Shown: positions 5,571 through 31,104 of the stretch, in pieces
How positions within the stretch are numbered: position 1 is the first letter of the stretch
How the letters are laid out: each line of letters starts with the position of its first letter
Assembly: GCA_973895155.1 (NCBI GenBank)
Contig: OZ316894.1
Location: forward strand, 22,938,709 to 23,002,708
Length of the DNA: 64,000 bases
Source: Marsupella aquatica
Taxonomy: Eukaryota; Plantae; Marchantiophyta
Reading direction: 5' to 3'
Made by a program: the position numbers and the translations under genes
Notes under the pieces: model-generated
Told to the model about the DNA's origin: nothing
Database searches by the model: none
The model's input: the letters and a program-made list of their open reading frames with translations, nothing else

Positions 5571-5628
5571 GAGGTGTTTACAAAAGACAGTAAACAGCAA
5601 ACAGAAAACTATAATAGGAACTGGTAAC

Positions 5629-9652: not shown

Positions 9653-9661
9653 TGAGATTTT

Positions 9662-9679
9662 TGGCGCCGCTGCCGGGGA
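9662..9679 (+). promoter_or_regulatory. G primer-binding site TGGCGCCGCTGCCGGGGA (tRNA-Asp type, as in Athila)
   Basis: Lies 9 nt after the LTR end and matches the known Athila-type PBS pattern. Confidence 0.88.
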
Positions 9680-9957
9680 ACAAATCAAGGAAGGTTTGAA
9701 GTACAGGCAGTGAATGCCAAAAGAAGGTTTTAATTCAGTAAAATAAGGGTGATTGCCACTATGGAACCTATTGGAGAATGGGCAATTCCAGGCTAGAAAT
9801 TCGACCTTATACAGTGGAAAATGCACCAGAGGCATTTAGAGAGAGAGTTGGAGGAGAAAATCCTGCCACAATTTTGGAAAGAAAGAGGAAAGCTAAGGCC
9901 AAGAAGGAAAGATTAAGTGGTGCTTAGTAAGGGAATTCTTTTTTTTAGAGAAAGATA

Positions 9958-10818
9958 ATGGTAAAAAAGAACAGGCCTCAGAAAAGAGAGAGAGCCTTGA
10001 TTAGGTCTAGGGATAATCAAACACACACGATTATCAGTGCCACTGCACGAGATAGAGCAACTATTTTGAGAAGGCAAGCGTCCAACCAAGGAGGGGGAAG
10101 CTACTTCTGGGGTGGCGAATTGGTGAAGGTTGACTCATGGGACACCAATTTTTTGTATGATTGTGTATTGGTTTTCAGAAGAGCCATAGATGGAAGACTG
10201 GAATTGATTGAAGCCACTCAAGATGATGAATTTGATGCCAATTTTATTTCCCCATTACTAAAAGAATATGACATTAAGGAGGAAATATTGGAGAAGGAAC
10301 TTGAGTATCAATTAAGGAAAGCATTGGCACGTTTAAAAGGGGATCCCTTATGGAGGAACCAACTTGATTATGTTTTAACAGAGTTTTATCAAGATAATCC
10401 CAATTTAATACTTCGGGAGGAAAGACCGGTTATGACCTCCAATAGAAGGGAGCTGGTTGACACTTGTAAATGGCATGCCAGAAGTGGATGGGCTTTGTTA
10501 AAATGGAGGGATTTAAGTACAGAAAGAGTATCCTTTAAATGGACCTCCACCCTCCCTCAATGTTCTAAATTGACTGATGTAATAGTCTTTAAGAGAGTTT
10601 GGATTGATGATGAGGAATATAAGTTGCAGCCCATTAAGGAAGAACATGATTTAGAATTTGTAATAAGCAAGAATGGTCAAATTAGTAACTGGGTTACTAG
10701 AGAAGAAGAGCTGAGAATCAAGGAGGTGCTGGAAAAATTACACATTGTTGAACACCCTTGGGTGGATGCCCTGGACACTCTAGAAAATTTGTTGAATAAC
10801 TACCGGACCTCGGCATAA
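9958..10818 (+). CDS. Extra 5' ORF (286 aa) upstream of G gag; unknown function
   Basis: Uninterrupted ATG-initiated ORF between PBS and gag, with an apparent internal duplication (D.VLVFRR...LELI / DVIVFKRV...YKLQ). Confidence 0.65.
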   Translation: MVKKNRPQKRERALIRSRDNQTHTIISATARDRATILRRQASNQGGGSYFWGGELVKVDSWDTNFLYDCVLVFRRAIDGRLELIEATQDDEFDANFISPLLKEYDIKEEILEKELEYQLRKALARLKGDPLWRNQLDYVLTEFYQDNPNLILREERPVMTSNRRELVDTCKWHARSGWALLKWRDLSTERVSFKWTSTLPQCSKLTDVIVFKRVWIDDEEYKLQPIKEEHDLEFVISKNGQISNWVTREEELRIKEVLEKLHIVEHPWVDALDTLENLLNNYRTSA

Positions 10819-11558
10819 AAGAGGACAACAGAAGGGGGGATTTCCCCAAATTAAAACCTTGATTCTAACTTTGAATAAGCAATGTGGCAAAATAATTGAA
10901 ATGCCTCCGATCAGGTCTTTAGGCACTTTGAGAGTAAGGAATTTGCATAAATGGTATGTTCAAACATGGGTACTGTCCCTAAAAGGAAGGAGGGGTATTC
11001 ATTGGTTAAGTATTACCTGGTGGGAAGGAGGAGTTTTGCATCTGGTTATTTTAAAGTTAAATGGTAGAGTTACTGGAGAGGAGTATATCCTTATCTCCAT
11101 ACAAGAATTAGCTAGAATAATATTGCAAAATCAAAATAGAAGACTCAGATAAGGAAGGACGAGCCAAAGTTGGTTGTAAACCAATCAGGGGAGAGACACT
11201 TTCCAAGGGGCACCACCGTAATGTGAGGAGATGCCATTACAGGTCAAACATTACGGGTTTACGACTCTACAATTTTACGGAGTTATGACTTTATGTTTAC
11301 GCCTTTACGCCTTTACGACTTTACGTCTCTACGACTTTACGTGTTTACGAGTTGACGAGTTGACGGGTTGACGTTTTTGAGGTTGAGGAGTCACGAGTCA
11401 AGGTTGCGTCTCTTCGACTCGCGACTGAGTCTTTTGACTGTTCGGACATACCGCCCATAAGACCCCAGCGGAAAAGGCACGATACCAAGGGACGCGATTG
11501 TTCCTGCTAGAAGAGACGGTTCAAGAAAGACTAAGGGTCAACCCGACACCATAAACTT

Positions 11559-14106
11559 GTGCCAGAAGAGTGCCGATTTTCAGAATGTGGGATGTCTGAT
11601 AAAGGGAAACGAGGTTGGAGAACAAAACGAGAAGAAAAAGCAAAAGCAGAAGCCTCTCAAGACCCACTTAACCCGAGAGAATTACTGCCGGATTTCCAAT
11701 CACCGAATTATCCGACACCTGGAAGTGTAGCAGAGCGAGTCACCCTGATCCAGCAAAGTGAAACAGAGGGAACAGTACAGAATCCAACAACAAGTCGACC
11801 TGTAATTTATAAATTACGCTCCAGAGATGTGCAATACATTTCACCCAAGCCTAGTAAGAAAGGAGTTGACATTGTCAAACCGTTAAGAAGAACGCAAAGC
11901 TTGGATGAATATGAGGGTACACCTGCGTTGCAGATAATAGGAACAGAAAAGATTACCAATACAAGGCATGAAAGTATAATTGGAGGAGGAATTCAGCAAA
12001 TTGAATCTTTAAAATTTAACTCTGACGCACCTTCGCTCCAGAAAACGCCCATTGGAGAATCTGCAAAATTAGCAGAGATACCTCCCTCGCTTGGTTATGG
12101 AAGTGCTAGCAGCAGCCTTAGCACAATAAGCACTCCCAATTCCTTAAATTCAATTTCACCATTGACGTCTCAAGGATCAGTCGCCAGCACTAGTACACAA
12201 TCTTTGGGAACCACTCCTCCAATTAATTCAATCCCGGTTCCTGTAAGAAGAACTCAAATGGCTCGAAACAATATTCGCTATGATACCTTTAAGGGAACAT
12301 CCAAGGAGGATGCTGAAACTTTTTTGAAGGAATTTGAAGTTGCAGCCACCTCAAATGGGCAAACCCAAGACGCTGAAAAAGCCACAATTTTTGGAGGCTT
12401 GTTGAAGAAAAATGCCCCAAAATGGTATGATCGATTCCCAGACAAGAATGATTGGGGAAAAACGAAGACCGGTTTTCTGGACAAGTATAAGGAGGATGGT
12501 GTTGAGGCAAGAGCCTTTGCCAGAATTTCTCAACTCACCATGAAGAAGTATGGCTCAGTCAGGAAGTATGCAGATAAATTATTGGACCTGGTGGACAAAT
12601 ACAATCCCAATACAGCTAAATCTACCACGAGAGATTGGTTTATCAACGGACTTCCCTCCCAAATTGCACGATATGTGAGAAGGGAAGGTGGTACAACTTT
12701 TGAAGAGGCACAGGAAGCAGCCCAAAAATATGTGGACTCTGAAGTCTCTGAGAAGAAACGAGTTAAGAAGGACTTGAAAAAGGGCAAAAAGAAAGAGAAA
12801 AAGAAAAAGAAAAAGAAAAAGACGAAGTCTTCATCAAGCTCAGAGTCTGATAATGGTGACACCACCAGTACTGAGGGAACAAGTTCCAACTCAAGCTCTA
12901 CCAGTAGTACAAGCGGCAGCTCAAGTTCTGATGATGTAGATACCAAGACAAAAAGGATGCTGAAAAGTACAGTGCCGCAAAAGGCTAAAACCTTGGATAA
13001 AATGATGGATTCCTTGACGAGTAAGTTAAACAAACTCTCGGTGAATGCGACCATCTATAAACCAACTAGAAAATTGCCACCTGCCATTCGAACTAATGTT
13101 TGGTGCACACGCTGCAATAATCAAGGACACTACCACCACGAGTGCCCCACATTACAAAGAGCTGTCAATTATGGAGAAGAGGAAGAGTTGATAGATTATG
13201 GAGATATCTATGCAGTCCAGGCACCATTTGCAGGGCAATACTTCCCTCCAGCTGCAGGACCAACTGCATGGACTCAGCAGAAAATAGCAGGATCATCCTC
13301 ATTTAATTGACCAGGGCCCAGACCACCGATGGGACCTCCGGGAGGATATCCACCTAGAGGAGCACCAAGGGTACAAGGGACTTGTTATAATTGCGGTCAA
13401 CCAGGGCATTATTCGCCAGAGTGTCCATACCCAAAGAGAGAAGTAGGATACACCCCAATTTGTGGCAACTGTGGAAAAGAAGGACACCTGCCCCTGGAGT
13501 GTCCAAACCCACCAAAACCAAAGATGATGGTGAGATTTGCTAAGGATCCTGTGAAGGAAGCACCCAGGCCGGAGGAGGTCAGAATGATCTGTACAGCCAG
13601 GAAAATGTGGAACAATGTAATCATGTAACCATTGAAGCAGGAAGAGAAGAGGAGGTGCACAACATTTATACACAGAATCTATCGGGTATCATCCCAGATA
13701 TTGAAGTGGAACACTTAGTACAAGATCATGTTGTAGGGATGCCCAACCAACGAGTCCAAGAACGGGACCGTGTTCTGGAAACTTACGCCACTACCAGATC
13801 CAAGGCTCATCACGAAAAGAAACATATTAAGGACGGGTCTATGCAGAAGAAATCGTCCAAGAGGAAGAGTAGGACAAGGATACCAGCAGAGGAAGGAATC
13901 CCAAAAGAAGATGACCCAGCATATGACAGGTATGACCCCAAGTACTTTCAGCCTGATATATCTGAAGAGATTAAAACTCAAATACATGAGTTAACTGAGG
14001 ATACATCCCTGCTAGGGGAACGGAAGGAAGTACGTTCGGAGATAAAGAGGCCCGAGCCCAAACTGACCATGGAACCACCACTCAGGCTGAAGGGGTATGA
14101 TATCGT
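11559..14106 (+). pseudogene. gag: G gag (capsid-like region, Lys/Ser-rich tract, three CCHC knuckles), truncated before protease
   Basis: TFKGTSKEDAETFL, WFINGL, CTRCNNQGHYHHEC, CYNCGQPGHYSPEC, CGNCGKEGHLPLEC. In-frame TGA at 13308 and frameshift near 13610. Confidence 0.88.
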
Positions 14107-14167
14107 GGAACGAATACCGAGTTTGAAGACCTTTAAGTGTGTTTTTGGTTCTTCATAGCAAACTACA
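14107..14167 (+). repeat. Remnant (last 61 bp) of the G 3' LTR
   Basis: Identical to the end of the 5' LTR (GGAACGAATACCGAG...AAACTACA) and followed by TSD GTAAC. Confidence 0.92.
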
Positions 14168-15610
14168 GTAACAGCAAAATTTCCTGTTTTGGGAGCACAT
14201 TTCTCCTGGTATTGTGGCAAAATTAAAAAAATCCGTTCCTAAAATACTGATAATTATGCGATGCCGAATACTAGCGCCAGGAGTCTACAGGCAAAACAAT
14301 CACAAATGCATCATGCCAAATACTAGCACCGGGCGTTCAAACCCAAAATAATGAAATATTAATCGCCCAAACATGCCGAATACTAGAGCCGACCGCTTCT
14401 AATGCTTTGTGGAGAAAATCACGAGGATTGATGTTCAGGCTGAGATCCAAGTAGAAACCAAACATTACTAATAGTCTAAGTTCAATATCAAAGCACAGAA
14501 GTAGGACTTAACCAAGGTATCTGAGTCATAACTTCTAACGGGAAATTTTAAGAAAAGAAACCCGAGCTTTTTTATTTAAGTGAAACATATTGTCCTTGAT
14601 GTACAAATATTGCTACATAGGAACACTAAAGTTGCCAGTGCAATTGTAACTAGCGCCAGGCGCTAATACTCCCGGTGGGTGCTTCCTCGTACAATGTCCT
14701 AGCTCGAAGAGTGACAGTCATCATCAATCCCAGCGTCCTGACGATCTGGATCTTGGCGGAAACCATCTAATTGGAAGTTGACATATGCTCTCGTGGGCCA
14801 TCGATACACTGGCCTTCCATGGAATCGAGAAGGAGAAGAACGAGAGCAATGGACTTTGAAAGAAACAATAGTATGTTTATAAGGGGCTTGGATTTCCTGT
14901 TATTGGTCCTCTTGACGGTACTAGTCGCCGACTGAAAGCCAAATGACACTATGGCGGAAATGACAAATATCAAACGGAAACTTCCAACGTGTTTTTTGGG
15001 GAGCGTCGGGCGCTACTTAAACAAGGAGAGGAACCCACACAAAGGACGTTACTAAAGACCACATTAACCATTGAATGGAAGGGGCAACCTTCATCAAACT
15101 CAATTCATATTTAATAAATTCAATAGCGCCCGGCGCTAACAAAAACCAAGGGCATACTCGTACAGTTGGGAGGAAGTTTGACCTGATAGAGGAGAAAATT
15201 GCTACCCTTCAGTGTCATATTTTGAGCTCTCATTCTAGGAGCTATGAGATCTGTCGGTCGACTCTGCCTCATCATCAATATACTTGCTTCTAGAAACATC
15301 ATCTACGTAGGGGTTCCTCATGAACTTCCTGTCTACTCCCCTAAGAAGCCTAAGTCCTTTTGTTTCCCAGCAGAGCATTCTAAATTTCTCTACCTTCCTC
15401 GCGACGTTCTCAACGTATGATGGCAACACAAACGGCTTCTCGGGAGTGATGATTACATTTTAAGCCACTTTCCTCCGGAGTTGAAACTGTTTTCTTTGGT
15501 TCCATTCTGACCTGCTCAAAAGAGAAGCGGAAGAGAAAGAGGAAGTAAGTACTTAACAGATAGAACCGGTGGAATTGATGGTTAGCCAACAATTGAAAGG
15601 ATAAAGGAGC

Positions 15611-18600
15611 TTACAAGAGACGAAAATTACTCAGAAGACTCTTCGCTATCCTCCGTTGACCCATCATGTCGGGTTTCCTCTTTCCCGCCGTCATTGACAT
15701 CCTCAGGAACATATCTTTTGGTGTCCCATCATCTTCATCCGAATCAAAGTTGAGGACAGATCTAAGTCTATCTTTCTTTTTTCGTCCGGTTATTTGAGGA
15801 GGGGGAGGTTGTGTCTCCAAAGGTTTGGGAGAAATGAGATCCAAAAAAATCCTCGAAGCGGTCTCAACAAACTCCCGACAATTTTCTAACCCGATGACAA
15901 AATGGCCTGAGTAATCCCTAGCAATGAACGTACTACCTGAGCCGACGGTCCAATCAATTACAATATCCTTAGGTATCGTAAAGAGTTCAAGGACAGTTTG
16001 CATAAAACCAACCGGTAGTCGGGAATTCCCAGTAAAATGGAGTTCAGGACAATGATCTTCCTTCAAAGATTGTAGCCCAATAAGGTTTGAGATTGAAGGA
16101 TCTTCAACGCTAGATAACGGCTTGAATCATGGATCCTTTGGGACCTTTCCTTTAAAAGAAACTCGACAAAATATATCCAGTCTAAGAGTGAAGACCTGCA
16201 AAAGTTGACAAACCAACTGGATTTTAAAAATTTCTTATTCATGAGAGAAGACCTACTAAGAAAGAAAGAGTAGCGCCGAGCGCTAGTATAGCTCTACTCA
16301 GAGAGAACATTTACCTTGACATCTGTCTTGGATCTGTACATTGGGACAGACATTAAAACATTGTGCGTATTGATGCACATGAACTTCTTGGATTGCTGAC
16401 ATGCAAAAATAACCTGGGAAATCTGATCGTGGTCATCCGAGTATAAGATAGCGAGCATGCCATCATCGGAAAGGAAAGGGTCCATCGCCCAAAAAAATGA
16501 TTCGGCTGCTGTGTGATCTGTGACATTCCATTTCGGGACCCGACGGTCAACAATTGTGGGTTTCAAACCAGTTGGGAGATAGATGAAACCCGCATTCACC
16601 CCAAATGATTGTTCCTTCCCACCTCGAATGATTCTTTTATCTCTACACCCCGATTTGATCAAATCCTTATCCCACTTCTCAGCGTCTGAGACCCAATCTG
16701 GCTTCTCTTCCTTACTAAATGCACTATCAATGAATTCTGCCAAGCTTGATTCGACCATATAGTGTCTTCCGAGTTTAGTCTTGAAAGTCCCCACATCCCG
16801 TTGGATACCGGCCCCAAAAGCATTATCTCACGACGATTCCCAGGCATCGATGGTCCTTTTCTTCTTCTTCTTCTTTGTGCTTGTAGCATCCACAGGAACT
16901 ATAACCTTCCCCTTCTCAACGGGGGTGATGGGGTCTGGATTGGCACCAGTGTTGGCCTCAGAGACTTCTGGTGTTGCATCAACTTTTGTGTCATCCGTGG
17001 CGGCATCAGATTTTCGACCACCTACCAAACAACGGTGTCAAGCACAGAAAGAGTGTTAGCGCCAGGCGCTGACCAAACACCCACATTAATTTTGGGAAAT
17101 ATGACACATTAAACTTATGACACATGATAGCGCCAGGCGCTAACAAAGAAGGAAGTTGGAAGAAGGAGGTGTAGCTTACGTTTTTTCCCAGACTTGGCAT
17201 AGCACTTGCCACAGGGGCATCCGCCTTGGCTTTGGCTCTTGGTTTTCGGCTTCGATCAACATGAACCACTGTGGTTTCGCATTTTTTTTGCAACTCAGTC
17301 GTCGACGAGTTGACGTCCCCCTCAATTTCTTGCTTCATGTCGGAGATAAATTGTCTCGGAACTTGGGATTTAGACAGTTTATGGAAAGCATCCTTCTCAG
17401 TGTCGTCAAAAGGAGAATCCCATCTGTCGGTGTCAAGGTACCAAGGGCAGTGAATTCTCTCCCACTCGGACAATTTCCTCGGTGGAAGTATACCCTCAGC
17501 GGGATACATCGAATACAGTTCGGCCAAAATGTCTCCATCTGCGCAGATGACCCAATTCTGGAAAGTAGCTGGGTAAGCCCAAAAATAGTCAGGCTTCACA
17601 ATCTCCATGTGCATGAAGAAACGATAGACATGTATTGTTTCGCTCGCTTTTGATTCTTGAGTGTGTAGTCTTCCTTGTCCGGGTACTTGGACATCCACAT
17701 CGTATTGAAAAACTTACCTTTCACTGCATCCCCAAATTTTTTGAAATCATTGCACACTATTTCAACGAGTGAATCATAAGACTCACACTTCCATTCCTCC
17801 AATCGATTGGAAGGAATTATTTCACTGATTTGCTGGAGGGCAGTCTGTAGCATACCAATGGCAATTCCCTCCACGCTATTCCAAGTTTGCCAAGTGTGGC
17901 ACCACTGCTTCACAGGGTCATCGCTAACGCTTTGCGGATGAAAGAACTGCTTCCTGAGCTCTGGCGTGCAATGCGCTACTAACAAAGTGCTCCTCAATTT
18001 GGGGTTGAGGGCGGAGATTGCTATAAATAACCTGGCACGATCCATGGTACAGACAACCGCATCCGGTTTCTTCTCGCGTTTGTTCACCTGTGTCATCGGA
18101 TACATCTCAGCACAGGTTGTCATGAAGTCTTCAAACTCAGGACTCAACAAGGGAGTGATCTTTGAGACCTTGATCGCCCAATCCTTCGTTGCTTCTTTCA
18201 TCATGACCGCATGTCGTTTGGATGTCTCTTCTTGAGACCAAGGATTTCCTTGAGCGGTGGCCGACTCCATGTCCATCTTGAATTGTCGAGAATAGGATTT
18301 AATCTTATTCTCGCATAAGATATACAGAATGCTTCTTGAGGCATTTTCTTGGAATACCACGATCCTTTTCGAGTCTTCTGCATCACCTGCCCAAACTTCT
18401 TGAAGTTTGCCCCATCGATGATTGATTTGTAGTATTCTAGATTGTTGGACAAAATCCTCTTAATTCGGTCTGCATCAAGTATCCAGGAAGGTTCCACCAC
18501 GGCCTGTCCAAGTCTACAGAAGAATTTGTCAGTCAATAGCGCCAGGCGCTAGTAAAAACTACACTATAAAAGATAAGGATAGGTGAAATTCAAAGAGAGA

Positions 18601-19366
18601 CTTACTGGTTCACAGTATGCATAGCCGCCTCAATTTCAATCAAAGATCCCTTTTCACCCTTGAAGATAGTACATTGCACACGCGGGTGATACTTGCTATC
18701 TTCTGGATTTTCTTTCGTAACGATCGACCATGCGTAAAGTCGATGGTTACCGTCAAAAACGTAAAACATCTTATCTTGTAACATCATGAAGTCTGGATTG
18801 GCCGCACATTCAGCTTCAAACTTCTCATTCTTGACCACCCACACTGGGTCCCATGTCGCTCTAATTTCTGGAGTACACGTCTGGACATTCCCATTCGAAT
18901 CTGCCGACTGGACATAGAACAACATTCCAATTTTTGAGTTGTATCCTGTGCTACAAAAAGAGTCCTTCAACTTTTCAATTGAAGGACTTCCCTTCTGTAA
19001 GGTGCGGACAACTTCCATGTGAACCAAGCGGCACATTGGAATCCTTGGGGGGTCTTTGTCGTGCCCTCGAAAATCCTTGCCAAACACCATAACGTGCTTG
19101 GAGATAATGTCGGACATCGTCAGTGACAGTTCTCCTTGATCTTCCACAGCGTATGTGTCAAGATCGTCCATCTTTGCTCTCCTGCTCTTCGGAAATATGA
19201 CTACCGCGACTGTTTCAGGATCTTGGGATGTTGTAGACCGTGTCACACGACGACTGTAAACAGATCCAGAAAACGAGCACTCAGATGTCTGGGAATGGAT
19301 CTGCTCTCTCTGCCCATTAGCACTATACCCATGCGAGGTGGTGGGGAGAGGGTCCATGTTTCGCAT
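15611..19366 (-). pseudogene. MULE accessory gene: ParB/Srx-like N-terminal domain, linker, and beta-class amino (N4C/N6A) DNA methyltransferase-like domain; spliced, with stops and frameshifts
   Basis: ParB-like RIPMCRL...VR...IEKLKDSF...GY...YVFDGNHRLYAW. MTase-like FIYLPTG..PKWN (motif IV-like), FLSDDGMLAIL (VI), LELFTIPKDIVIDWTVGSGSTFIA...VIGLE (X-I-II). GT-AG introns at 18514-18605, 17022-17179 and 16196-16314. Confidence 0.78.
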
Positions 19367-19697
19367 ACACGAAGTGCTTCACGATCGTGATGAGTACCTC
19401 ATTCGTACCGTACTTCTTCTAGAGAATTCTTGCACGAAGAACCTCCAAAACGGAACCTAAATACAGCGGACAAGGGAGGTGGGGAGAGTATCATCTCTAA
19501 ACTATCCCCTCGCTACATTGATATCTATTTACGACATTCTCCTGAGCACCACTTGTCAATTCTGGATTAGTTGTTAGAATACCGTTGGCATATCTTCAAC
19601 GTTACATGACCTAACGTTACCGTTGAATATGACCGTTAAAGAAGAGTTTGGTGATTTTAATCTATATTCCTAGGTCAAATCTGATATTGGTCAATGG

Positions 19698-20154
19698 TGT
19701 TGGGTATTTACTCTTACGTCTAGGTTAGGTATGACGTGGTTGGTACAACAACGTGGGTTGGTACAACTACGTGGTTAGGTACAACTACGTGATTAGGTAC
19801 AACTATGTGGTTAGGTACAACTACGTGATTAGGTACAACTATGTGGTTAGGTACAACTATGTGGTTAGGTACAACTATGTGGTTAGGTACAACTAAGTTG
19901 CACACTATATCATAAGAGGCATGTGTGCTTGGAGAGGTAGAACCAAGGCTCATTGTTATGGAGCTACTTGAGAGATAGGGAGAGCTTACACTGTGGAGAC
20001 TCGGTATAGCCGACGGGCTTAGAGTTCAGTAAAGCTCTCTTGTGTGTTCCCATGGACGTAGCCTCAAGGAGGTGAACCACGTATCTCTTGTGTCGACTAT
20101 TGTGCGTTGGATGGTTCATGGGCTTGCCGTTGCGATCGTCGTCTATGCTCAACA
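19698..20154 (+). repeat. Copia 5' LTR (457 bp) with an 18-bp tandem array (GTGGTTAGGTACAACTAT)
   Basis: Repeat of 25351-25789, with one extra 18-bp unit and ~2 substitutions outside the array. Confidence 0.95.
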
Positions 20155-20156
20155 AT

Positions 20157-20168
20157 TGGTATCAGAGC
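20157..20168 (+). promoter_or_regulatory. Copia PBS TGGTATCAGAGC (tRNA-iMet)
   Basis: 2 nt after the LTR end. Confidence 0.95.
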
Positions 20169-20845
20169 ATGCTTGGGAGGTGACGTGTGTTCGTGACGGG
20201 ATTTCATGACGGTTTTTCCAGCGTTGAGTGTTGGTGAATTTTCCAGAGTTCCATCGCATGGAACTTGGAGTTTATGGGCTCAACGGATAGATCAGGGCAA
20301 GAGCTTTCTAACGGTGTGAAGAAATCGTTGAACGGAGCTCGTGGTGCAGAGAGATCTAAGTTTTCGTCGTTCTGGATTTTGTGAAGAAAGTTGGCAATCG
20401 ACTCGGAGGGAGAAGCGTCAAGTGTTTTGACTCAACAGAGAGATTGAGGCAAGACGATTGTTTTGAGTCCGGGATTGGCTCTTTGATGCAAAGAGGAAGG
20501 CTAAGCAAAATCAATTACCTTGTTGGATTGGTGACGGCACCAAGTGCAATTGATCAACATTCGTTGTTGACAAGCCATTGAAGTTGGCAACGCGGCGCAC
20601 CAATCACATCGTAATTCCGACAACGGGTTGTACTTGGTATTTCGGTTATTCCCTGAGGTGGTCAAAACGGGGGAGTTTCCCAAGGTTTTACCCACCTCGA
20701 CCGAAATTTGAATAACTTTTCCGTCAAATTTCGATTTTGATTTCGGTTTTCAGTATTGGACTCCTAGCTTTGTGGGCTACGCGGCGGTGTTGAGTTTCGA
20801 GTTTTTTGAGAAGTTGTGAAAAACAACAATTTTTGTGATTCTCAT

Positions 20846-21886
20846 ATGAGTGATTCGGAGGAGTTTTTTGAAGACGTGGAACTTGAAGCACGAGGGTCAC
20901 CGCGGCGGTTTCAGGGGCAGAGAGAGGAGCAGGAGGAAGAGCACGTGACACCGATACCATCACCGGTGCGGCGTGTGGTGGAGGAAGTAGTACTACTACC
21001 AGAGCTCACGGTAGTGCCAAAGAAGAAGATGGGGACTTTCAAGCTTGGGGGACCCAAGTATGAAGTGACAAAGTATGATGGGCGCTCTGACTACTTGCTA
21101 TGGGAGAAGCAGGTGAAGGGAGTGCTCTATGCGTCAGGGATGGGCCAACTGCTGAGCACTCGTGAAGACGATGTTGATGAGAAACAATGGGACCGCATGC
21201 AGGAGCAGGGAGTGTGGTGTGTTACACTCTATCTCATGCCTCCCATCATCAAGCAGTTAGGTGCACATAAGGATTGCATGTCCTTGTTTGCAGAATTGCA
21301 GAGCAAGTATCACCGCAAGGAGTTGTCAAACCGGCTCTACACTTCCTACAAACTGATGAGTTTCAGGATGAAGGAATCTGGTACGAAGTTGCAAGACCAT
21401 GTGGATGCTTTCAACGACATGGTCGTTGACTTGGAAAACCTTGGGGAGACTTTGAATGATGAGACGAAGGCTCTGCAGCTTCTTAGTTCATTGCCTCCAT
21501 CTTACCAGTCCCTATCACGAGTGTTGTTGCATCGTGATAGGGATACCATTTCATACAATGACGTGGTAAGTTCTCTGCTTAGTGATGATCTTCAGCAGAA
21601 GATGCACATCACGTCACAGCCTTCATCATCTGGTGCTGCCCTCAATGTTAACCGTGGGAGGAGTATGCAGCGACCAACTGGGGACCGTAGAACCCAGTTT
21701 AGATCTAAATCCAGATCTAAGTCCAAGGGTAAATCCCCTCAAAGGAGGCAGGTGACATGTTGGAAGTGCAACCAAGTTGGACACTTCAAGCGAGACTGTA
21801 AGGGAAAGGCAGCGGAAACTTCATCGGCAAATGTGGCTAGGGCTGATGGAGAAGCTGATTTACTCAATGATGAGTATGTTTTATGA
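20846..21886 (+). CDS. gag: Copia Gag
   Basis: KYDGRSDYLLWEKQ, LLSSLPPSY, knuckle CWKCNQVGHFKRDC. Confidence 0.93.
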   Translation: MSDSEEFFEDVELEARGSPRRFQGQREEQEEEHVTPIPSPVRRVVEEVVLLPELTVVPKKKMGTFKLGGPKYEVTKYDGRSDYLLWEKQVKGVLYASGMGQLLSTREDDVDEKQWDRMQEQGVWCVTLYLMPPIIKQLGAHKDCMSLFAELQSKYHRKELSNRLYTSYKLMSFRMKESGTKLQDHVDAFNDMVVDLENLGETLNDETKALQLLSSLPPSYQSLSRVLLHRDRDTISYNDVVSSLLSDDLQQKMHITSQPSSSGAALNVNRGRSMQRPTGDRRTQFRSKSRSKSKGKSPQRRQVTCWKCNQVGHFKRDCKGKAAETSSANVARADGEADLLNDEYVL

Positions 21887-24800
21887 AGCCGGGGGTATGC
21901 CCTGTGCACGTCATCTAGGAGAGCAGATGATGTGTGGATTCTTGATTGTGCTTGCTCTTTTCATATTTGTTACATTCGTGAGTTTTTCAGTTCTTATTCT
22001 ATTTCAAACGGTTCAGTTCTGATGGGAAATGATCACTCTTGTCAAATTGAGGGAATTGGGTCTGTGAAGATTCAAATGTTTGATGGCGCTGTGCGCACAG
22101 TGTCCGGAGTCAGGTATGTACCTGGCATGCGTAAGAATCTGATTTCACTCGGTGTGTTGGATTCAAATGGTCATCAATGGAGCGTTATTGATGGTGAACT
22201 TCAAGTCAGGTCGGGAGAGACAGTGATTTTGAAGGGGAGTAGACAAAAGAATTTGTATGTGTTACAGGGCAATACTGTATGTGGAGAGGCCAATGTAACC
22301 AAGTCTCACGAGGAGATGACTCAACTGTGGCATTCACGGCTAGGCCACATGAGTGAGAAGGGTTTGGCTATCTTACGGAAGAATGGACTCATTTCTGATT
22401 TGCAATCTTGTAAATTAGAGTTTTGTGAGCATTGCATTCTTGGAAAGCAGCATCGTCGTGCTTTTGGTGTTGGAACTCATCGTTCCAAAGCGGTTCTTGA
22501 GTACATACATAGTGACGTGTGGGGTCCATCCCCGACTCTCTCACACTCTGGAAAGTTGTACTATGTATCATTTATTGATGATTACTCAAGATTTGTGTGG
22601 ATTTATTTCATGACGCATAAGTCTGATGTCTTGTCCATTTTTAAGAAGTGGAAGGCCCAGGTGGAGAATCAGACTGGAAACACGATCAAGTGTTTGGATA
22701 CAAGGGTGAAGAGTCTGAGGTCAGACAACGGCGGGGAGTACACTTCAATGGAATTTGAAGAGTACTGTTCAGAACAGGGGATAACTCGCCATCTCACCAC
22801 AGTTTATACTCCGCAGCAGAATGGTGTCGCTGAGAGGCTCAATCGGACACTGTTGGAGCGGTCACGGAGTATGTTGAGCCAATCAGGTTTACCACAAGAA
22901 TTTTGGGCAGAAGCTATCAATACCGCAGCTTATTTGGTAAATCTTTCTCCTTCTAGTGCTATCAATTTCAAAACGCCGTTTGAGATGCGCTATAAGCGGC
23001 AAGCAGACTATCATGGCTTGGTAATTTTTGGAAGTGATGCATATGCTCTCACACCAAAGCAGAATAGGACCAAGTTGGATCCTACCTCCAGGAAATGTGT
23101 TTTTCTTGGGTACCAGAGTGGTGTGAAAGCCTATAGGCTATGGGATCCTATTGCCTGTAAGCTCGTTGTCAGTAGGGATGTTTCCTTCAATGAATCCAGA
23201 TTATTGAAGGAGGGGGAGAATACTCAGGTCTCCCGTACTGACAAAGGAAAATCTCCTATCCCGGATCTCGTTGAGGGGGAGATTGGTTATGAGGTGCATG
23301 ACCGGAGAGAAGGAGTTGCTCCAATTATGGAGCTGGTTCCTGTGCCAGAGGAACCAGAGGAGTTTGTTGATGCTGGTGAGCAGCAAGTGGATGCTGTTGA
23401 GCTTCAAATTGTACCAGCACACGCAGATCAACCGGAGTCATCGGCTAGAAGAACATCTGGTCGCACTGTACGCGCTCCATCAAGGTATGGACAGTGGGTT
23501 GATTCATCTCAACTGCAAGAGGATGATTTTACAGCTGATGATGAGGGTGATGCGTTAATTTTGGAAGAAGGAGAACCTTCTTCATTTCATGAGGCAAGTG
23601 CTTCAAAGGAGAAGTAGAAGTGGACTGCAGCAATGCAAACGGAGATGCAGTCACTAAAGGACAACAAAACTTGGGAGCTTGTTAAGCTGCCTAAGGGTCA
23701 GCAAGTGGTGGACAACAAGTGGATTTACAAGCTGAAGGATAATTCCATAGGAGGTGGATCGAAGGTCTACAAGGCTAGATTGGTAGCAAAGGGATTCACA
23801 CAAGAGAAAGGTGTGGATTACAATGAGGTCTTCTCACCAGTTGCTAAGTACTCTACAATACGACTATTGTGTGTACTTGTTGTAATGTTTGGTCTGCTCC
23901 TAGATCAGATGGATGTTGTCACAGCTTTCCTCTATGGCACATTGGAAGAGGTGATCTTCATGAGACAACCGCTAGGTTTTGTGAAGAGAGGACAGGAGGA
24001 ATTGGTTTGCAGATTGCTGAAATCCTTGTATGGGTTGAAGCAGTCACCAAGACAGTGGAACAAGCGGTTTGACGATTGGATTCGGTCACAAGGTTTTCAC
24101 AAAAGTGTATTTGACCCTTGTGTGTATTTGAAACCGGTGAAGAATGTTGTCTTTGGGTTCATTGTTTTAGTACTTTATGTGGATGACATGCTAATTGCAG
24201 CCAAGGATAGGTCTGAGATTGTTAAGCTCAAGGCACTGCTTAGTGCAGAGTTTAAGATGAAGGACTTAGGGCCAGCTAAGAGGATTTTGGGTATGGAGAT
24301 CACTAGGGACTTGGAGGCTGGCAAGCTATGGTTGACGCAGAGCAGTTATGCGAGGAAGGTAATTGCAAGGTTCAACATGGAGAATAGCAAGCCAGTAAGT
24401 ACCCCGTTGGCTCCACACTTCAAGTTATCATCAGCGTTCTGTCCTACGGATGACATAGAGAAGGGGTTGATGTCAAAGGTTCCATATGACAAGGCAGTGG
24501 GGAGTCTCATGTATTTGATGACTTGCACTAGACCTGATCTTGCCATGGCTATGGGCAAGGTGAGCAGGTACATGTCGAATCCAGGGAAGGTACACTGGGA
24601 AGCAGTGAAGTGGATTATCAGGTACTTGAAGGGTACCGTGGATCATGGTCTTTTATTTGATGCGAATGCAAAGAATGCTAGATCATTGATTGGCTATGTA
24701 GATTCTGACTATGGACAAGATTTGGACCGAAGGAGATCAACAACAGGATACGTGTTCACACTTGGCGGTGGATGCATAAGTTGGAGGTCTACTTTGCAGA

Positions 24801-25159
24801 AGTGTATTGCTCAGTCTACTACAGAAGCGGAGTATGTTGCAGCTGCGGAAGCAGCAAAGGAAGCGATTTGGTTGGATAGACTTATCACTGAAATGGGATT
24901 GCCACAGGGGAATGTGAAGCTCCATTGTGATAGTCAAAGTGCGCTCCACCTTGCTGTGAACCAGGTGATGGACAGCAGAGTGAAGCACATTGACGTCAGG
25001 TACCATTTTATCAGGCAGGCTGTGTCTGATAATTTGTTTGAGCTAGTCAAGATTGATGGTAAACTCAACCCGGCTGACGCATTTACCAAAGTGATTCCTT
25101 TGGAGAGTTTCTCTAGACACCGTGACGTATTGCAGGTTTTGCAATTGCATCACAAGTAG
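21887..25159 (+). pseudogene. pol: Copia Pol (PR-IN-RT-RNase H), in frame with gag, one internal TAG at 23615
   Basis: WILDCACSFH, WHSRLGH, IHSDVWGP, RSDNGGEY, PQQNGVAER, YKARLVAKGFTQ, LYVDDML, YVDSDY, KHIDVRYHFIR. Confidence 0.95.
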
Positions 25160-25350
25160 AGTTTTCTTAAACATTCATTGTAATTACTGATATATGCTCT
25201 TCCTCATTCCTATGTATTAGGCTACGGCTTAGTTCTGGTTTGCTCTAGTTAGAGAGGGAAACCGGTTTGGTTTCTGTCCAGAACTTCCCGCTGAGGGATC
25301 ATATACATTGGCAGTATTACTCTCCCCTAGACCAGAGTCAAGGGGAAGAT

Positions 25351-25789
25351 TGTTGGGTATTTACTCTTACGTCTAGGTTAGGTATGACGTGGTTGGTACA
25401 ACAACGTGGGTTGGTACAACTACGTGGTTAGGTACAACTACGTGATTAGGTACAACTATGTGGTTAGGTACAACTATGTGGTTAGGTACAACTATGTGGT
25501 TAGGTACAACTATGTGGTTAGGTACAACTAAGTTGCACACTATATCATAAGAGGCATGTGTGCTTGGAGAGGTAGAACCAAGGCTCATTGTTATGGAGCC
25601 ACTTGAGAGATAGGGAGAGCTTACACTGTGGAGACTCGGTATAGCCGACGGGCTTAGAGTTCAGTAAAGCTCTCTTGTGTGTTCCCGTGGACGTAGCCTC
25701 AAGGAGGTGAACCACGTATCTCTTGTGTCGACTATTGTGCGTTGGATGGTTCATGGGCTTGCCGTTGCGATCGTCGTCTATGCTCAACA
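25351..25789 (+). repeat. Copia 3' LTR (439 bp)
   Basis: Direct repeat of the 5' LTR, preceded by the PPT. Confidence 0.95.
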
Positions 25790-26356
25790 AATGGTAGCGC
25801 CTGGCGCTACCCAAAACGATCAATATTTAAACCCTAAATTTTCCCTAAGTTAGGCCAACATTGACCCTGAAGTATAAAATAAAAAACAAAATGAATACAA
25901 TTTTTGAATATTTTTCCTTAATTGAATGTCATGATTACCGTTTCAAATTAGCGCCCGGCGCTAATATTAAATGGGCACATTTTGGTAAAATTTTAGATAA
26001 TATTTGGAAAATAGCTACAAACATTAGGGTTTATTCTGAAACCCCGGATAAAATATTCCAGTTTAATACCACAATTTATGGTGTGGGTTTGAGTAGCGCC
26101 TGGCGCTAAACATATATTGCACCATTTTGGGTCCATGTTGGAGTGAGGATGTTTGAGTAGCGCCCGACGCTACTCAATTAAGATGATTTAATAAACATGA
26201 TTATGCTCTTCGGAAATGGACATCTTAGGCTCATTAGTGTAAATGTCGTTGACATAACGACAAAAAACATTTATTGTGTCAGATGTGCTTTCGACCGGTA
26301 GTGATTCTGTCGTATTCTAATGGCTCTGACAAACGGATTATTCACTATGAATACCA

Positions 26357-29300
26357 TTGTGTGCATTCGAAGACGTCATTCATTATTGTGAACTGAGTGT
26401 TTTTGGGTTGGATGATCTTACAATGTCGAGGTCAATCATTCTGACGCGTTCGTCTACCGGTGACCTTGTATCCATTCCATTGTCGGCCAATGACGTATAC
26501 AAGCAAGTTAGTGAGAATTATCTTTGTGGGCGCTTTGGTTTGGATTTGAATGACATTGAGGACATTTTGGATGAGGGAAACGGAGATGATGCCTCTAATT
26601 TCACTGCTTCTTTTGGCCTCATTCACAATTGGAGGACTCAAAAGGAACGTCATACTCAGAAGTGACCATAGTTTATTATGCTTTAGGACATCATTTGTAA
26701 GGTGTAATGAGATGATATGCAAGATTTGATGTACTATACTTAATAAACATCCTGTAGGTTGGTAACATTAATTAAACTATCTAGCATTTGAGACTTTGAA
26801 GCTTTCCTTATATGTCCTTCAAAGATCGATAAAAGGACTTGTCACGCAACGAGTCACATCATTTCAGGACTCGAAAGGACTCTAAAACTTGCATTTTAGA
26901 CAATGAAATTTTACCAAGGCATGCATACTAATAGAATAATCTTATATTTTAAAACTCAAATATTGACACACACTAAACCTTTATGTACAGGACAAAAATA
27001 ATAAGTAATTTTGGCTTATTTAGGGCCATCAATAATAGGATCCCTTAAAAAAGTTAAAAACTTGATTTATCTACATGATGAGGTAGGTTACACCATGTAA
27101 AATAGTCTTGTGAAAAAATTAGACTTAAATGTCTTGAGATAAAATCATGATGAAACTTTTTCCATGTTACGAAAGTCATTTTTCACTAAAAAAACATGTT
27201 TTTGAGTCCTGAAAGTGGTTCCTGTGAGGTACACCCAATTGTGAATGAGGCCTTTTGATGTTGATGACGGGATTCATTTTTGGCACCTGAATGCAGGAAT
27301 TCGGTATTCTATTGTCATTCGAAAACCAATCGCATCCGATCTCCCATCTTCATCCAAACCCTTTGTTGATGTTGTCTTGCTTTCAGAAAGCGACGATGAT
27401 GGACCTTCTGGTTTGCCTGAGTCTAGTGCTAAACCCCCTCACACAGTTGTTAAACAGGAGGTTACCCCTGTTAAACAGGAGGTTAGAGCAGTTTTTACCA
27501 AAAATTCCATTGTGTATTGGAGAAGTGCAATGGATACCATTCTCAAGTCAACTGGTTCCAGTGAAATCTCGAGGTTCATCGCGGCTGGGGACTTCTGCCA
27601 TGAACAAGTTGGCTGTTTGCCGAAGAAATACAATGGAAATATTGTATTCGAGTTGCCTCCTGCGGGAGCTCTTTCAAAGGGGTCACGTCTACGCGACATG
27701 AACCGGTCGAAGGATTGCTACATCTGGACCAGAATATTTCCTACATCAGCTAATGTTCATCCCAAGAAATATTGGGAATTTGGTAAAGTAACGTGCACTG
27801 GGTCCATTGAGTGTAGGAATAATACTTGCGACTATTTTCGACGGAAGAAAAGGAGGAACCAGAAGGCCTGGGGTGGAACCCCCAAACTTGGCGGGCAACA
27901 TCGTGTTGGCTCCTTCATTGACGAAGGTGGAGTTGTTTGCCAATTTTGTGATCAAGTTCCATTTTGTGTCCAATCTTGTCCAACAAGGTTATTTTACATG
28001 TACCCCCAGGTTCTAGTTGACTCAGAAACCTGTACTCACATGTCCCGCTTGGCAATTCATATGGGGATCCACAACCATCCTTCAAGAAAGGTGTTTTCTC
28101 GGAGCGCAGAGAAGATTGTTGAGGAGGTTATCAAAAAGAAATTGGAAGGAAATCCAATTTTCACCCTTGCTGGTGTAAAAAATGTGGCGACAGGGTCCTT
28201 TGTAAAGTCCTTGTGTGAAAGTGTGGAAGATATTCAAGATATTGAAGAAACCAAGATATTTTTGAGTCGCTCATGGTAGTTTCCACACCCCAGAAGTTTG
28301 CGTCCCTCTTTCGTAGTGTTAGACAGGACCAGAAAGGTCGAGGTGAACTAGATTTTCTTGTTCGGTATCAAAGAAATATCAACATGCCTTTCCTCCAAAG
28401 GTACCTGTCATATGACACAATACGACGCAATAAGTTGTCCCTTAATGGACAATGCCATTTTTTACTTCTAGGTACAGACTCCACTTCACTAGCGCCCGAC
28501 GCTAGTGTTTTCTTATTGCGTAACAGACAATTTATTCTATATAATTGCAGAACAAGAGTGTTGAAGAAGGGGCTAAGATTCCTAATTGTACAGGATCAGA
28601 GTCCGTGCACGCAGGTATGAAAGCATGGGTAATGAAGAAAAAGGTTGGACTCTTTGAGGCATGTGAAATGGACCAAAATCGAGCTATTTCTCAGGTTGCT
28701 GCTTACACTGCGTATCGGAAAGGGTTGCATAGAGGAAAAGGTCCCACAATTTGGGAACTCGCTTTCCGATCAGCGGACCAGGCAGGCTCCCCCAAGTTGT
28801 ATGAAGATGCAATGAATATGCTACTGTCCAACGCTGCCGAGTTTGACTTGGAGAGACGTGCACCTCTCAATGGAGACGTTGTCACCAAATCTTTGAAGAG
28901 GAAAGGACATGCATCTGGGAATATCTCGCCACAAGACTCCCATAGGCATGATAAAATCCTTGTCACCTCGCCCAATACTAGATCAATGAAAAGGAAGAAT
29001 CTTAATCGCACGACGTTTGATGCTATCCTTGGCCCCACGCCTCAAGTTAATCCTGTTGTTAATTTGTCTGGAAGTGACATTTTGGGCGATGGAGAAGATG
29101 TCGATTTCAATACCCCTCCTGCTCGAGACCAAACGCGTTCAACGAGGCTTCCCCAGACTGCTCCCTCCATGGTTCAGCAACCGTTACAAGAGTGTCCTGT
29201 CCGTGAGATCGAGGTTGCTCCATCTGCATGGCAATTACGTCGAACTTCAAAATTTGGCGCTGGTCCTCAGTGCAACGGATCATTTTCCCGTAATTCCGAA

Positions 29301-30076
29301 AGAGACGAGTGTCGCAATCGCATGAAAAAAGTTGGATTTCCCTCACCACATGGTGTTATCGGCGTTGTTGTCAAAGGACAACGCATTTTCAGGGGGGAAC
29401 CCATAACCGAAATGATTTGGTTTTGCCCAAACAATACATGTTACAGAAGCCACCCTCGTCGAGGTGTATTGAACCTGCCCCCTTTCCCGGATGTTCTTCC
29501 CATTTTGAAAGGGGCAAATGTTTCGGAAGACGAGCTGCAATATCTTCTTGACAACGGAATCTCCCTAGTGCACGGAAATGAACATACAACTACATCCCCG
29601 TCAGATTTTGATCTTCGAATCAATGTCAATATTTTTCCAGAACATGTGAATCTTCTCAAACCCAATGTTCGTCTCCGAAGCCGGAATGGGACGAATACGG
29701 TTCCTTGGTCAAATCTTACCCAGGTCACATGAACATAATTGCGTCTGCAAAAAAAGAGACGATGTCCATTCAGGGATAGTGGGATGTTGCGATTGGGAAT
29801 GCATGGGGAAAGCAGTTTAAGGTGCAAACGCACAAAAATATGCGGACACCAAATTGTTACTTTGTTCAAATTTGCATTTTCCCCACTTGCTCGTGTGAGG
29901 ATTTCTACCGGTGACATTCTCGGAAACATCCATATATGCCTTGCAAACATTTGTATTGGATTTTCCTTACCGTTTTCAAACTAGACGTTGAGGAATCTAC
30001 ATTGACCAACCAACCAATTCTCACTGTTGGAGAGGTTCGGCTCATATTAGAGAGGCAAAATGCTCATGGTTTATAG
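26357..30076 (+). pseudogene. MULE transposase remnant (GCM/WRKY-like Zn domain, core apparently deleted, C-terminal SWIM finger)
   Basis: CTGSIEC...C...CQFC...C...HMGIHNHP. CTGSESVHAGMK resembles the MULE TxNxxEsxH motif. TCSCEDF...PCKHLYW is CxC...CxH. Intron ~28472-28550. Interrupted by the MITE at 26615-27252. Confidence 0.78.
26615..27252. mobile_element. 638-bp AT-rich MITE with 18-bp perfect TIRs (GGCCTCATTCACAATTGG) and 4-bp TSD TTTT
   Basis: TIRs read directly. Removing the element plus one TTTT restores the transposase frame (TASF|DVDDG). Confidence 0.85.
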
Positions 30077-30280
30077 CATGAATCATGATGATGTAGGTTT
30101 TATTATCGGTCCAAACGGTTATATTGATTTTGTCGTATGTCAACGGAAAAGTGTTATTTATGTCGCGTCATGTTTTGTTAGCGCCAGGCGCTGATAATTT
30201 TGTCACTTAGGCTACACCGTTAAATATCATCGTGTTGTGCTTGATGTTCTCAACGCCAACTATTTGTTTCCTTAAATACC

Positions 30281-30700
30281 GAGTAAAGTTACATCATCAG
30301 TTATCAGTGTTTTCCATCAGTCGCCACATCATCTTAGAGAGGCCGCCAAGTTGGGGTTTTTTCCAAAAATTCTCAAAAAAAATAATTTCCCCAAAAATAT
30401 TTTTTTCACTATGTGTGTCCGTACCGTACGGACACCGCATCTCGGCGAGACCCGCCAAGATAGTCCGATGTTCGTATGGTACGGACACCAAATTTTGTCG
30501 GATTTTTTTTTAAGATTTATTTTTTTTTGAGAATTTTTGAAAAAAAAATTAATTTTTTTTCTTCGTTTTTTTTGTCCTTACGCTGATCTCGGCAAGGTCA
30601 GCTGAGATGCGTGAAAGTGCGAAGGCCCTATCTCAGCTGCTCAGCTGAGATTCAGAAATTTCAAGGCGACCAAACTGATAACTGATGATCCTCGCTACCC
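30281..30700. mobile_element. 420-bp MULE-type MITE
   Basis: 10-bp TSD CTTAAATACC (30271-30280 / 30701-30710) and subterminal inverted repeat ATCATCAGTTATCAGT / ACTGATAACTGATGAT. Confidence 0.85.
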
Positions 30701-31104
30701 CTTAAATACCGATAAGATAGCGCCAGGCGCTAGTCAAGACGTTGTTCACTTTTATTTTGGACCATATAATACCATAAAGTTTTGGGCTGCATTCATTTTG
30801 TATTATTTTTATATATTTTGTTGCCGATTATGGTGGGACCTACCATTTTTGTGCACATTCCTTGACATTTTTATGTATGCTCCCCCTTGTTTGTGTTGGG
30901 ATCTGAGGTTCAATTATTATGTGGTTCAACGATTCATGACAAGGTATCCTCCCTCACCGCAATGGACTAACTCCAACTTAAACAATTCTAAACTCCTGAT
31001 TGTGTGTTCTTTCCCCTGGTACAAGATGTTTTTTCCTGGTAACAGCATAAGGCAAACAAGAAAAGTATTTGCTGTTTGCCTGTTTGCTGTCTCGGTCGCT
31101 ATAC

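Follow-up and report, generated by a model that had tools for sequence, protein, structure and literature searches.

The element and its two genes

The window, that is, the whole 64,000-nucleotide stretch of Marsupella aquatica DNA that was analysed, holds a Mutator-like element (MULE) at positions 5571..31104, a span that includes three nested insertions and comes to ~10.46 kb without them. The preliminary description had drawn the element too short; we place its ends at 5571 and 31104, where a 10-bp direct repeat (5561-5570 and 31105-31114; 9 bp on a shorter reading) gives a target-site duplication within the 9-11 bp of MULEs. The frame of a Ty3 retroelement is present on both sides, the insertion having hit its integrase region. 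The left terminus (5571..5628, plus strand) is an imperfect inverted repeat with AAACAG units, which also occur in the right terminus (31045..31104, minus strand); we call this terminal inverted repeat weak because the two termini aligned with a score of 33, below the maximum of 35 among 500 shuffles (mean 16, sd 5.8). The nested insertions are an LTR retroelement from outside the family (5629..14168, plus strand; gag domains, GTAAC duplication at 5624 and 14169), a copia retrotransposon recognized by Pfam (19698..25789, plus strand; AATGG duplication), and a 417-bp MITE of another family (30283..30699) with a 13-bp flanking direct repeat and imperfect terminal inverted repeats. The empty site of the copia insertion is present in family contigs of X1 and X3, and that of the MITE in X3.

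A decayed Mutator-type transposase gene occupies 26283..30076 on the plus strand, its 5' start being approximate. Its product has a GCM-like domain (~27500-28090; 0.94 to an Atlas GCM cluster, of whose members 12% carry the family) and a SWIM finger (~29850-29960; pattern match, Pfam E 0.089), each weak alone, which together give the WRKY/GCM1-type domain and SWIM finger of a MULE. No MULE Pfam match representing the DDE catalytic core was found in the window copy. An ES.H motif is present at 28599, with only ~150 codons between it and the end of the GCM-like domain, and two X1 contigs diverge from the window at 28406; the catalytic core was apparently deleted after ~28406 in this copy.

On the opposite strand, at 15631..19366 (minus), lies a gene of four exons and ~1,120 codons (18606-19366, 17180-18513, 16315-17021 and 15631-16195) that combines a ParB/Srx-like region with a beta-class amino-methyltransferase-like region, and for which we found 6 homologues. 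The window copy is broken by frameshifts and two stops; three of the frameshifts do not occur in other family contigs, and a further candidate lies near 17640. Introns 1 to 3 (18514-18605, 17022-17179 and 16196-16314, minus strand) and the transposase intron (28472-28550, plus strand) all have GT..AG ends. Intron 1 was confirmed by its identical position in 5/5 metagenome relatives and by alignment of exon 2 to L002 and L004, and intron 3 by an in-frame join.

The closest Atlas clusters to exon 1 were those of DUF3723 (0.96; 191/256 features), a ParB_N cluster reached 0.92, and weak profile matches were obtained to DGQHR (E 0.022) and to a ParB-like PHROG (E 0.021). DUF3723 (PF12520) is a fungal family, a term met mostly in the Starship literature among the sources consulted; its host and element class differ from ours, and the window protein had no match to its Pfam HMM. 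At the position of the GERR motif the window and its relatives read DGNHR (GNHR in 13 of the 14 covering aligned rows, GNHQ in 1), so that the GERRxR arginine patch required for CTP binding is replaced. Pieces of exon 2 from the window, L002, L004 and L005 gave no helix-turn-helix (HTH) against Pfam at E up to 10, and profile searches detected no other DNA-binding domain in the protein. Profile alignment to two canonical ParBs reached a probability of 0.3% over 10 columns, with no alignment of exon 2, and the exon-1 alignment, searched against PDB sequences, returned no ParB. Two fold models scored poorly (pLDDT 43 and 56), the best Foldseek match being to a ParB-N domain at E 0.9. We found no full-length homologues of exon 1 or exon 2 among longer proteins, which is weak evidence, and no relative in viral contigs; two weak matches in prokaryote genomes, sharing only the DGNHR region, were not taken as orthologues. 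The only Pfam family matched on the exons was N6_N4_Mtase, in exon 4 (E 1.1e-6, 29.2 bits versus a cut-off of 26.7).

A 15-bp palindrome in the non-coding DNA

The window palindrome has the consensus TAGCG(C/T)CNG(G/A)CGCTA and occurs at 14 sites (chance ~0.5). Scanning with TAGCGCCWGGCGCTA at up to 3 mismatches gave 15 matches, as against a mean of 0.47 and a maximum of 2 in shuffles. Of these, fourteen fall within 14651-30732: 6 are perfect, 4 have one mismatch, 3 have two and 1 has three. The remaining match (57065; 3 mismatches) has a PWM score of 11.8 versus 19.9-26.3 for the others, which is the level of chance. Three degenerate palindromes (14272, 14324 and 14384; span 14272..14398) are real but weak (PWM 6.8, 12.6 and 7.6) and form a short triplicated unit; with the insertions removed, the left end is ~160-270 bp away. 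The ~14 near-perfect and 3 degenerate copies previously counted were thus recovered.

Three sites, found by mismatch scan and PWM, lie 3' of the ParB-methyltransferase-like gene (14651, 15001 and 15124; 14651..15138), four are in its introns (16271..16285 in intron 3, 17057 and 17128 in intron 2, spanning 17057..17142, and 18537..18551 in intron 1), and one is in the transposase intron (28490..28504). The mismatch scan placed the other six between the divergent genes (25795, 25949, 26094 and 26158; 25795..26172), the first of them 5 bp from the copia insertion, 3' of the transposase gene (30179..30193), and at 30718..30732, ~370 bp from the right end. All 14 sites are therefore non-coding, although exons make up 6085 of the 10257 element bases counted (p = 3.4e-6), and 5/14 fall within the four introns, which are ~5% of those bases. 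Each of the four resolved introns has a palindrome and the exons, nested elements and termini have none, in agreement with the distribution first reported. The sites run along the entire element, the largest gap being ~2.3 kb and the nearest site to either end ~370 bp away; the terminal repeats themselves lack the palindrome. We also looked for the motif in the window's other retroelements and found none.

The sequences flanking the palindromes are mostly dissimilar (median identity 32.5% over 40 flanking bases, best 50%), and all 28 of the 28 CG dinucleotides within the 14 palindromes are intact in an element with a CpG observed/expected ratio of 0.75-0.85. Exact palindromes in mostly unrelated flanks, with every CG preserved, point to selection on the motif. 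Every contig of X1, X3 and X6 that covers position 16279, within site 16271, has G there, the symmetric letter. A few pairs of palindromes have 28-34 bp in common in inverted orientation, so some sites arose through copying. CCWGG, described as often at the centre, is there in 8 of the 14 sites and missing from 6, and we rejected it as the functional core.

A second palindrome in a relative and in the nested MITE

The five relatives (L001-L005) are contigs of 1.2-1.9 kb, with the transposase, termini and methyltransferase exons outside them. None of the five, nor any other of the 17 fetched loci, contains the TAGCGCCWGGCGCTA palindrome. A different palindrome, ATCTCRGC-N6/7-GCYGAGAT, occurs in the nested MITE at 30439, 30586 and 30630, partly subterminally, and intron 1 of L003 has two copies of it in the N7 form (0 in 200 shuffles). 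As the pattern was drawn from the very sequences scanned, these shuffle counts overstate its significance, which holds only at ≤1 mismatch and falls to the level of chance at 3 (0.64 expected); the L003 and MITE sequences also matched independently of the pattern (BLAST E 0.011-0.04). L004 has one probable degenerate copy of the L003-type palindrome. L002 has four 15-mers of the form RGC-N7-GCY inside a dense array, in which spacers of 6 (14) and 10 (15) outnumber those of 7 (5), so that this array may be unrelated. No palindrome was found in the two complete introns of L005, or in the 420 upstream bases and 57 intron bases covered in L001. The palindromes look family-specific, given a different one in the same intron of L003 and the same second motif in the window MITE. 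The common core, GC-N7-GC, has the recognition geometry of MwoI, which with 4 specified bases is a lead only.

Predicted role of the palindromes

We consider it somewhat probable that the 14 palindromes are VANC-like self-recognition sites for the element's own ParB-like protein. The ParB-like/methyltransferase-like accessory protein would bind them as a dimer and, once bound, label the element along its length as 'self' and oppose host silencing, in the manner of VANC on VANDAL elements; we infer binding itself, the ParB-like protein rather than the transposase as binder, its dimeric state and the anti-silencing outcome. Because its methyltransferase-like domain retains motif I but not the catalytic motif, that part is most likely non-catalytic, a SAM-binding reader or shield of DNA. 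The preliminary description had likewise proposed cis sites for the element's own ParB-methyltransferase. The VANC-like layout agrees with that proposal, and the ParB-like protein is, on indirect evidence, the better candidate, but its two further parts fared worse. Strict parS-like loading is unsupported because DGNHR replaces the GERR of CTP-clamp ParBs and the searches detected no HTH; we regard a CTP sliding clamp of bacterial type as possible but do not favour it. The other part, CCWGG as a methylation target, is taken up with the methyltransferase below.

A known parallel is VANC21/VANC6 of Arabidopsis VANDAL elements (PMC5735166), which are also Mutator-like and in which an accessory protein encoded by the element recognizes family-specific short motifs in non-coding DNA, VANC21 binding in introns, between genes and in terminal non-coding DNA (PMC5735166). 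A family-specific motif concentrated in non-coding DNA is what we find here (14/14). Unlike the window palindrome, the motifs of VANC span 8-9 bp, lack palindromic symmetry and grow as tandem repeats, and of the two systems VANC is the one with proven binding and demethylation (PMC5735166); judged by Pfam families, the window proteins had no match to VANC. VANDAL/VANC is the only system named in 10.1101/2025.02.11.637652 as proven to bind and modify the transposon's own sequence by means of an accessory protein. The same source describes Plavaka PAG3 of the red alga Bostrychia, in which, as here, a ParB-like domain is fused to a DNA-modifying type of domain on a DNA transposon and nearby inverted repeats are proposed as binding sites, a hypothesis in both cases (10.1101/2025.02.11.637652). 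The element of PAG3, however, is of the EnSpm/Plavaka type, with a 2OG-oxygenase partner and tandem arrays beside the gene (10.1101/2025.02.11.637652), whereas ours is Mutator-like with a methyltransferase-like partner and single sites dispersed over all resolved introns and the spacers. The accessory gene of Sola1-1_Ec32 in the brown alga Ectocarpus has the same pairing of ParB-like and N4C/N6A methyltransferase regions, is of similar length (1104 aa versus ~1,120 codons), lies like ours on the strand opposite to the transposase, and has been proposed to bind its own element (PMC12477816). It belongs to the Sola1 superfamily and is predicted to be catalytic, whereas our gene lacks the catalytic motif, and the main text of the report does not contain 'palindrom' (PMC12477816). 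Bacterial ParB-parS (10.1101/2024.12.04.625172) shares a palindromic site of similar length and N-terminal ParB/Srx-like features with our element, from which it differs in having GERR for GNHR, ParA, and an HTH of a kind that our searches did not detect in the window protein, and in not residing on a eukaryotic transposon.

The idea of a self-binding ParB is already published as a hypothesis for algal transposons, whose ParB-domain accessory genes have been proposed for this role; in a search that covered subscription journals thinly, we found no literature on a plant Mutator element that has palindromes dispersed through its introns together with a ParB-methyltransferase-like gene. What the present element adds is a 15-bp site with sharp limits, another site in a second family and a MITE with that second site, which makes specificity swaps directly testable. 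Should the ParB-like protein prove to bind and protect, sequence-specific anti-silencing would have a second route, of bacterial derivation, and targeted epigenome editing a possible tool.

The main rival to the ParB-like protein as binder is the transposase, although we regard it as rather unlikely that the GCM-domain transposase (or a derived regulator) binds the sites and activates or synapses cognate copies, with the ParB-like gene a passenger. A GCM-like zinc DNA-binding domain is there, the nested MITE has palindromes near one end, and in AtMu1 the transposase by itself can demethylate and activate the family and also binds non-autonomous elements related to it (10.64898/2026.08.24.746577). 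AtMu1 binding, however, peaks by ChIP at the terminal inverted repeats (10.64898/2026.08.24.746577), and the termini of our element carry other repeats and no palindrome; moreover four sites are inside introns of the ParB-like gene, and ParB genes with adjacent inverted-repeat arrays in red-algal Plavaka elements, which have a transposase of another superfamily, suggest that the palindromes travel with the ParB domain.

An elaboration of the self-recognition reading, more speculative still, is that ParB-like dimers of each family load at their own co-evolving palindromes (a GC-N7-GC core with differing arms), close on nucleotide via the variant GNHR patch, and spread between sites 1-2 kb apart to coat the element, a dead methyltransferase fold shielding cytosines and MITEs keeping sites for protection in trans.

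We think it improbable that the element's methyltransferase is instead catalytically active with the sites as its substrates, depositing 4mC or 6mA on or close to them and thereby preventing host 5mC. The beta-class C-terminal motif X followed by the SAM-binding motif I is kept (DpnA E 3.5e-4; own HMM E 1.5e-15 over 74 residues). The product of the MwoI methyltransferase is 4mC. The recognition geometry of MwoI is that of the GC-N7-GC core (PMC3458533), and self-modification has been proposed for the Ectocarpus protein (PMC12477816). Yet the spliced exon 3+4 frame has no D/N/S-x-P-Y/F/W catalytic motif IV, while D-x-P-Y is present in 6/6 fetched phage and plasmid beta-methyltransferases. The candidate position, placed by eye in an N-terminal half that aligned without statistical support, reads YLPT, the first three residues being unchanged in X1, X3 and X5 at a 10% listing threshold, and this position is unaltered in most family contigs; differences among them around this degenerate motif (10 synonymous versus 15 non-synonymous) point to no more than mild constraint. 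With no catalytic motif and 6/14 sites without CCWGG, methylation of CCWGG is unsupported. The domain matched generic beta-methyltransferases (~27-40% identity), and an MwoI-type enzyme as nearest relative was not borne out.

A host transcription or chromatin factor exploited by the element is a still poorer candidate for the binder: the bidirectional promoter region does have four sites, but the palindromes differ between ParB-gene families and the window's other retroelements lack the motif. Least probable of all, the palindromes would be RNA hairpins, which could form a 6-bp stem closed by a 3-base loop, or neutral leftovers of local duplication, as the few pairs with 28-34 bp of inverted identity might suggest; but promoter and downstream DNA have sites too, an RNA family was rejected for want of an Rfam match, the asymmetric variant mispairs C with A on the sense strand at 3/3 such window sites, and the cores are exact while most flanks are unrelated.

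Palindromes of the Mutator-like element

Our scan of the window for the 15-bp palindrome found 14 sites between positions 14651 and 30732 of the Mutator-like element (5571-31104) versus 0.47 expected from shuffled windows, indicating that the array claimed in a preliminary description of this DNA is real. All 14 scored at least 19.9 against a matrix built from those same 14; after them came 14324, a degenerate copy (12.6), and 57065, where the match is at chance level (11.8). Column counts across the sites gave T-AGCG-(C/T)-C-N-G-(G/A)-CGCT-A, with all 28 CG dinucleotides intact, while the CCWGG center also put forward in that description had to be given up as a feature of the set, being present at only 8 of the 14 sites. 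The sequences flanking the sites were mostly unrelated (median identity 32.5%), and a few pairs of sites had 28-34 bp in common in inverted orientation. The palindrome set is a real, well-defined cis feature, and a symmetric 15-bp site preserved exactly while its flanks are unrelated suggests that a DNA-binding protein reads it as a dimer.

Each of the four resolved introns contains a site, whereas no site was exonic (0 of 14, p = 3.4e-6); this p-value is conservative since the bases scored as non-coding include what are probably a decayed 5' exon and a nested repeat (~26280-27220). Likewise, none of the 14 lies in the nested LTR, copia, or MITE insertions, so the placement originally described was borne out. 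Strong palindromes start ~540 bp from the left end of the element and stop ~370 bp from the right, and the largest gap is not above ~2.3 kb. We also saw that the asymmetric variant at 15001, 26158, and 28490, together with the common family allele at 16271, always reads TAGCGCCCGACGCT along the direction of the nearest gene; the TAGCGCCCGACGCT orientation is outward-pointing on both arms of the element.

Nesting, copy number, and the transposase gene

A direct repeat of 9-10 bp (5561-5570 and 31105-31114) brackets the element, showing that the span first assigned to it was too small. Its ends are weakly inverted, with AAACAG units. Three later insertions are nested within it, each with its own target duplication: an LTR element (5629-14168), a copia element (19698-25789), and a 417-bp MITE (30283-30699) that has imperfect TIRs and an internal inverted repeat (30357-30546). 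Other contigs have empty sites for the copia element and the MITE, and the element is ~10.46 kb without the three insertions. The Mutator-like element itself interrupts a Ty3 retroelement in its integrase region. A large Ty3 element (3137-41722; LTRs ~37.2 kb apart and 96-98% alike) encloses it entirely, giving at least three nesting levels. In sequencing runs X1 and X3 there were many distinct contigs per position with differing alleles (e.g., 19 contigs in X1 at position 16279), which indicates that the element belongs to a multicopy family, contig depth itself not being equal to copy number. The copia element landed 5 bp away from a palindrome, amid the bidirectional promoter region (flanks at 19693-19697 and 25790-25809); either chance or locally open chromatin may account for this.

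The plus-strand gene (~26283-30076) has a GCM-like domain, an ES.H motif, and a SWIM finger, with only ~150 codons from the GCM-like domain to the ES.H motif, and two contigs depart from the window sequence at 28406; in our reading it encodes a Mutator transposase and has suffered an internal deletion. Its 5' part is split by a palindrome-free stretch (~26670-27220) whose summed contig depth is 4-5 times that of its neighbors, probably another nested repeat.

The ParB-like gene and candidate binders

Four exons totaling ~1,120 codons make up the minus-strand ParB-like gene (15631-19366). The clusters that exon 1 resembles are DUF3723 and ParB_N, and it gave weak matches to DGQHR and to a ParB-like family. 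Six protein homologs and the metagenome loci share DGNHR as the conserved core of this exon, one row having DGNHQ. CTP-clamp ParBs require GERR; however, this arginine patch is absent from exon 1, with DGNHR in its place, and no HTH was detected in the protein, so the sites could not be upheld as parS in the strict sense. Fold models were too poor in quality to settle the fold. Three frameshifts occur solely in the window copy or in a minority of the family's copies, and an additional one lies near 17640. Two bacterial loci (L006, 9338-10840; L007, 2937-4415) encode proteins of ~490 aa that are related to each other, match no Pfam family, and have a ParB-like region with DGNHR at their center.

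The spread of the sites through introns and spacers and their absence from the termini match VANC21, the anti-silencing protein of Arabidopsis VANDAL21, whose binding pattern has this layout (PMC5735166), more closely than AtMu1 transposase. Binding by the element's own transposase is possible but unlikely, as AtMu1 transposase binding peaks at TIRs (10.64898/2026.08.24.746577), where the present element has no sites. In red-algal Plavaka elements, which have a different transposase, inverted repeats accompany ParB-domain genes and are proposed to be ParB-bound (10.1101/2025.02.11.637652). Given these two likenesses, we lean toward the ParB-like protein as the candidate binder, serving self-recognition and anti-silencing: a dimer on the palindromes would mark the element as self and so counter silencing. 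A true CTP clamp would make up a minor and doubtful share of this reading, as it fails the arginine-patch test.

For exon 4, the match to N6_N4_Mtase covers motif X and motif I. Nowhere in the frame spliced from exons 3 and 4 did we see D/N/S-x-P-Y/F/W; D-x-P-Y was present in six of six bacterial and phage beta-methyltransferases fetched, and Marchantia DN4MT1 has TSPPY (10.1101/2021.02.12.428880, a preprint that leaves ParB unmentioned in its available part). The residues most likely to be motif IV, positioned by eye, are YLPT, which showed only synonymous or rare changes among the family contigs of X1, X3, and X5. A methyltransferase that is active through an unusual catalytic site appears improbable, and under the favored reading the methyltransferase fold would act as a non-catalytic reader or shield. 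Binding by a host factor we consider quite improbable, and an RNA or neutral origin of the palindromes the least credible.

The core proposal of the preliminary description, that these are cis sites for the element's own ParB-methyltransferase, remains plausible once shorn of CCWGG and strict parS, and it was partly anticipated in print. The Ectocarpus element Sola1-1_Ec32 has, as here, a ParB-like and N4C/N6A methyltransferase gene opposite its transposase, and self-binding is proposed for this accessory gene in PMC12477816. The ParB-HTH fusions in PMC4738411 are Dam-type, a different class from the present gene. What is new is that the setting is a Mutator element whose ends are defined, that each resolved intron has single sites, that the palindrome changes in a family-specific way, and that a MITE has a second motif; among the papers our literature searches covered, none was listed that combines these.

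Relatives and a second palindrome

Five metagenome loci encode exon-1 relatives (33-60% identity), all with intron 1 at the same codon and none with the window palindrome; these loci are short, so that palindromes were seen beside exon-1 fragments and not within full elements. Intron 1 of L003 has two copies of ATCTCRGC-N7-GCYGAGAT, and intron 1 of L004 has one probable degenerate copy of this type. L002 has a dense repeat array in which four 15-mers fit RGC-N7-GCY; its 818-bp intron (336-1153) is filled by alternating AAGCY/RGCTT half-sites with spacers of 6, 7, and 10. The other two, L005 and the truncated L001, had no palindrome in the DNA covered. The L003 palindrome recurs in the window MITE, twice with a spacer of 7 and once with a spacer of 6, which suggests at least two families with distinct palindromes and a common RGC-N7-GCY core, one palindrome apparently being kept by a non-autonomous element. 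With three ATCTCRGC-N6/7-GCYGAGAT palindromes that match those of L003 intron 1 in pattern, the MITE implies a second ParB-gene family in the same genome.

Elsewhere in the window, long ORFs with no Pfam match lie inside two LTR retroelements (5713-8457 and 35815-38181); they are alike by eye, are flanked by arrays of 8-bp units of the TTTACGNN and GGCGCAAC types, and may be accessory genes of the retroelements that have repeat arrays of their own. A tandem array at 49898-50289 has a 14/28-bp period.
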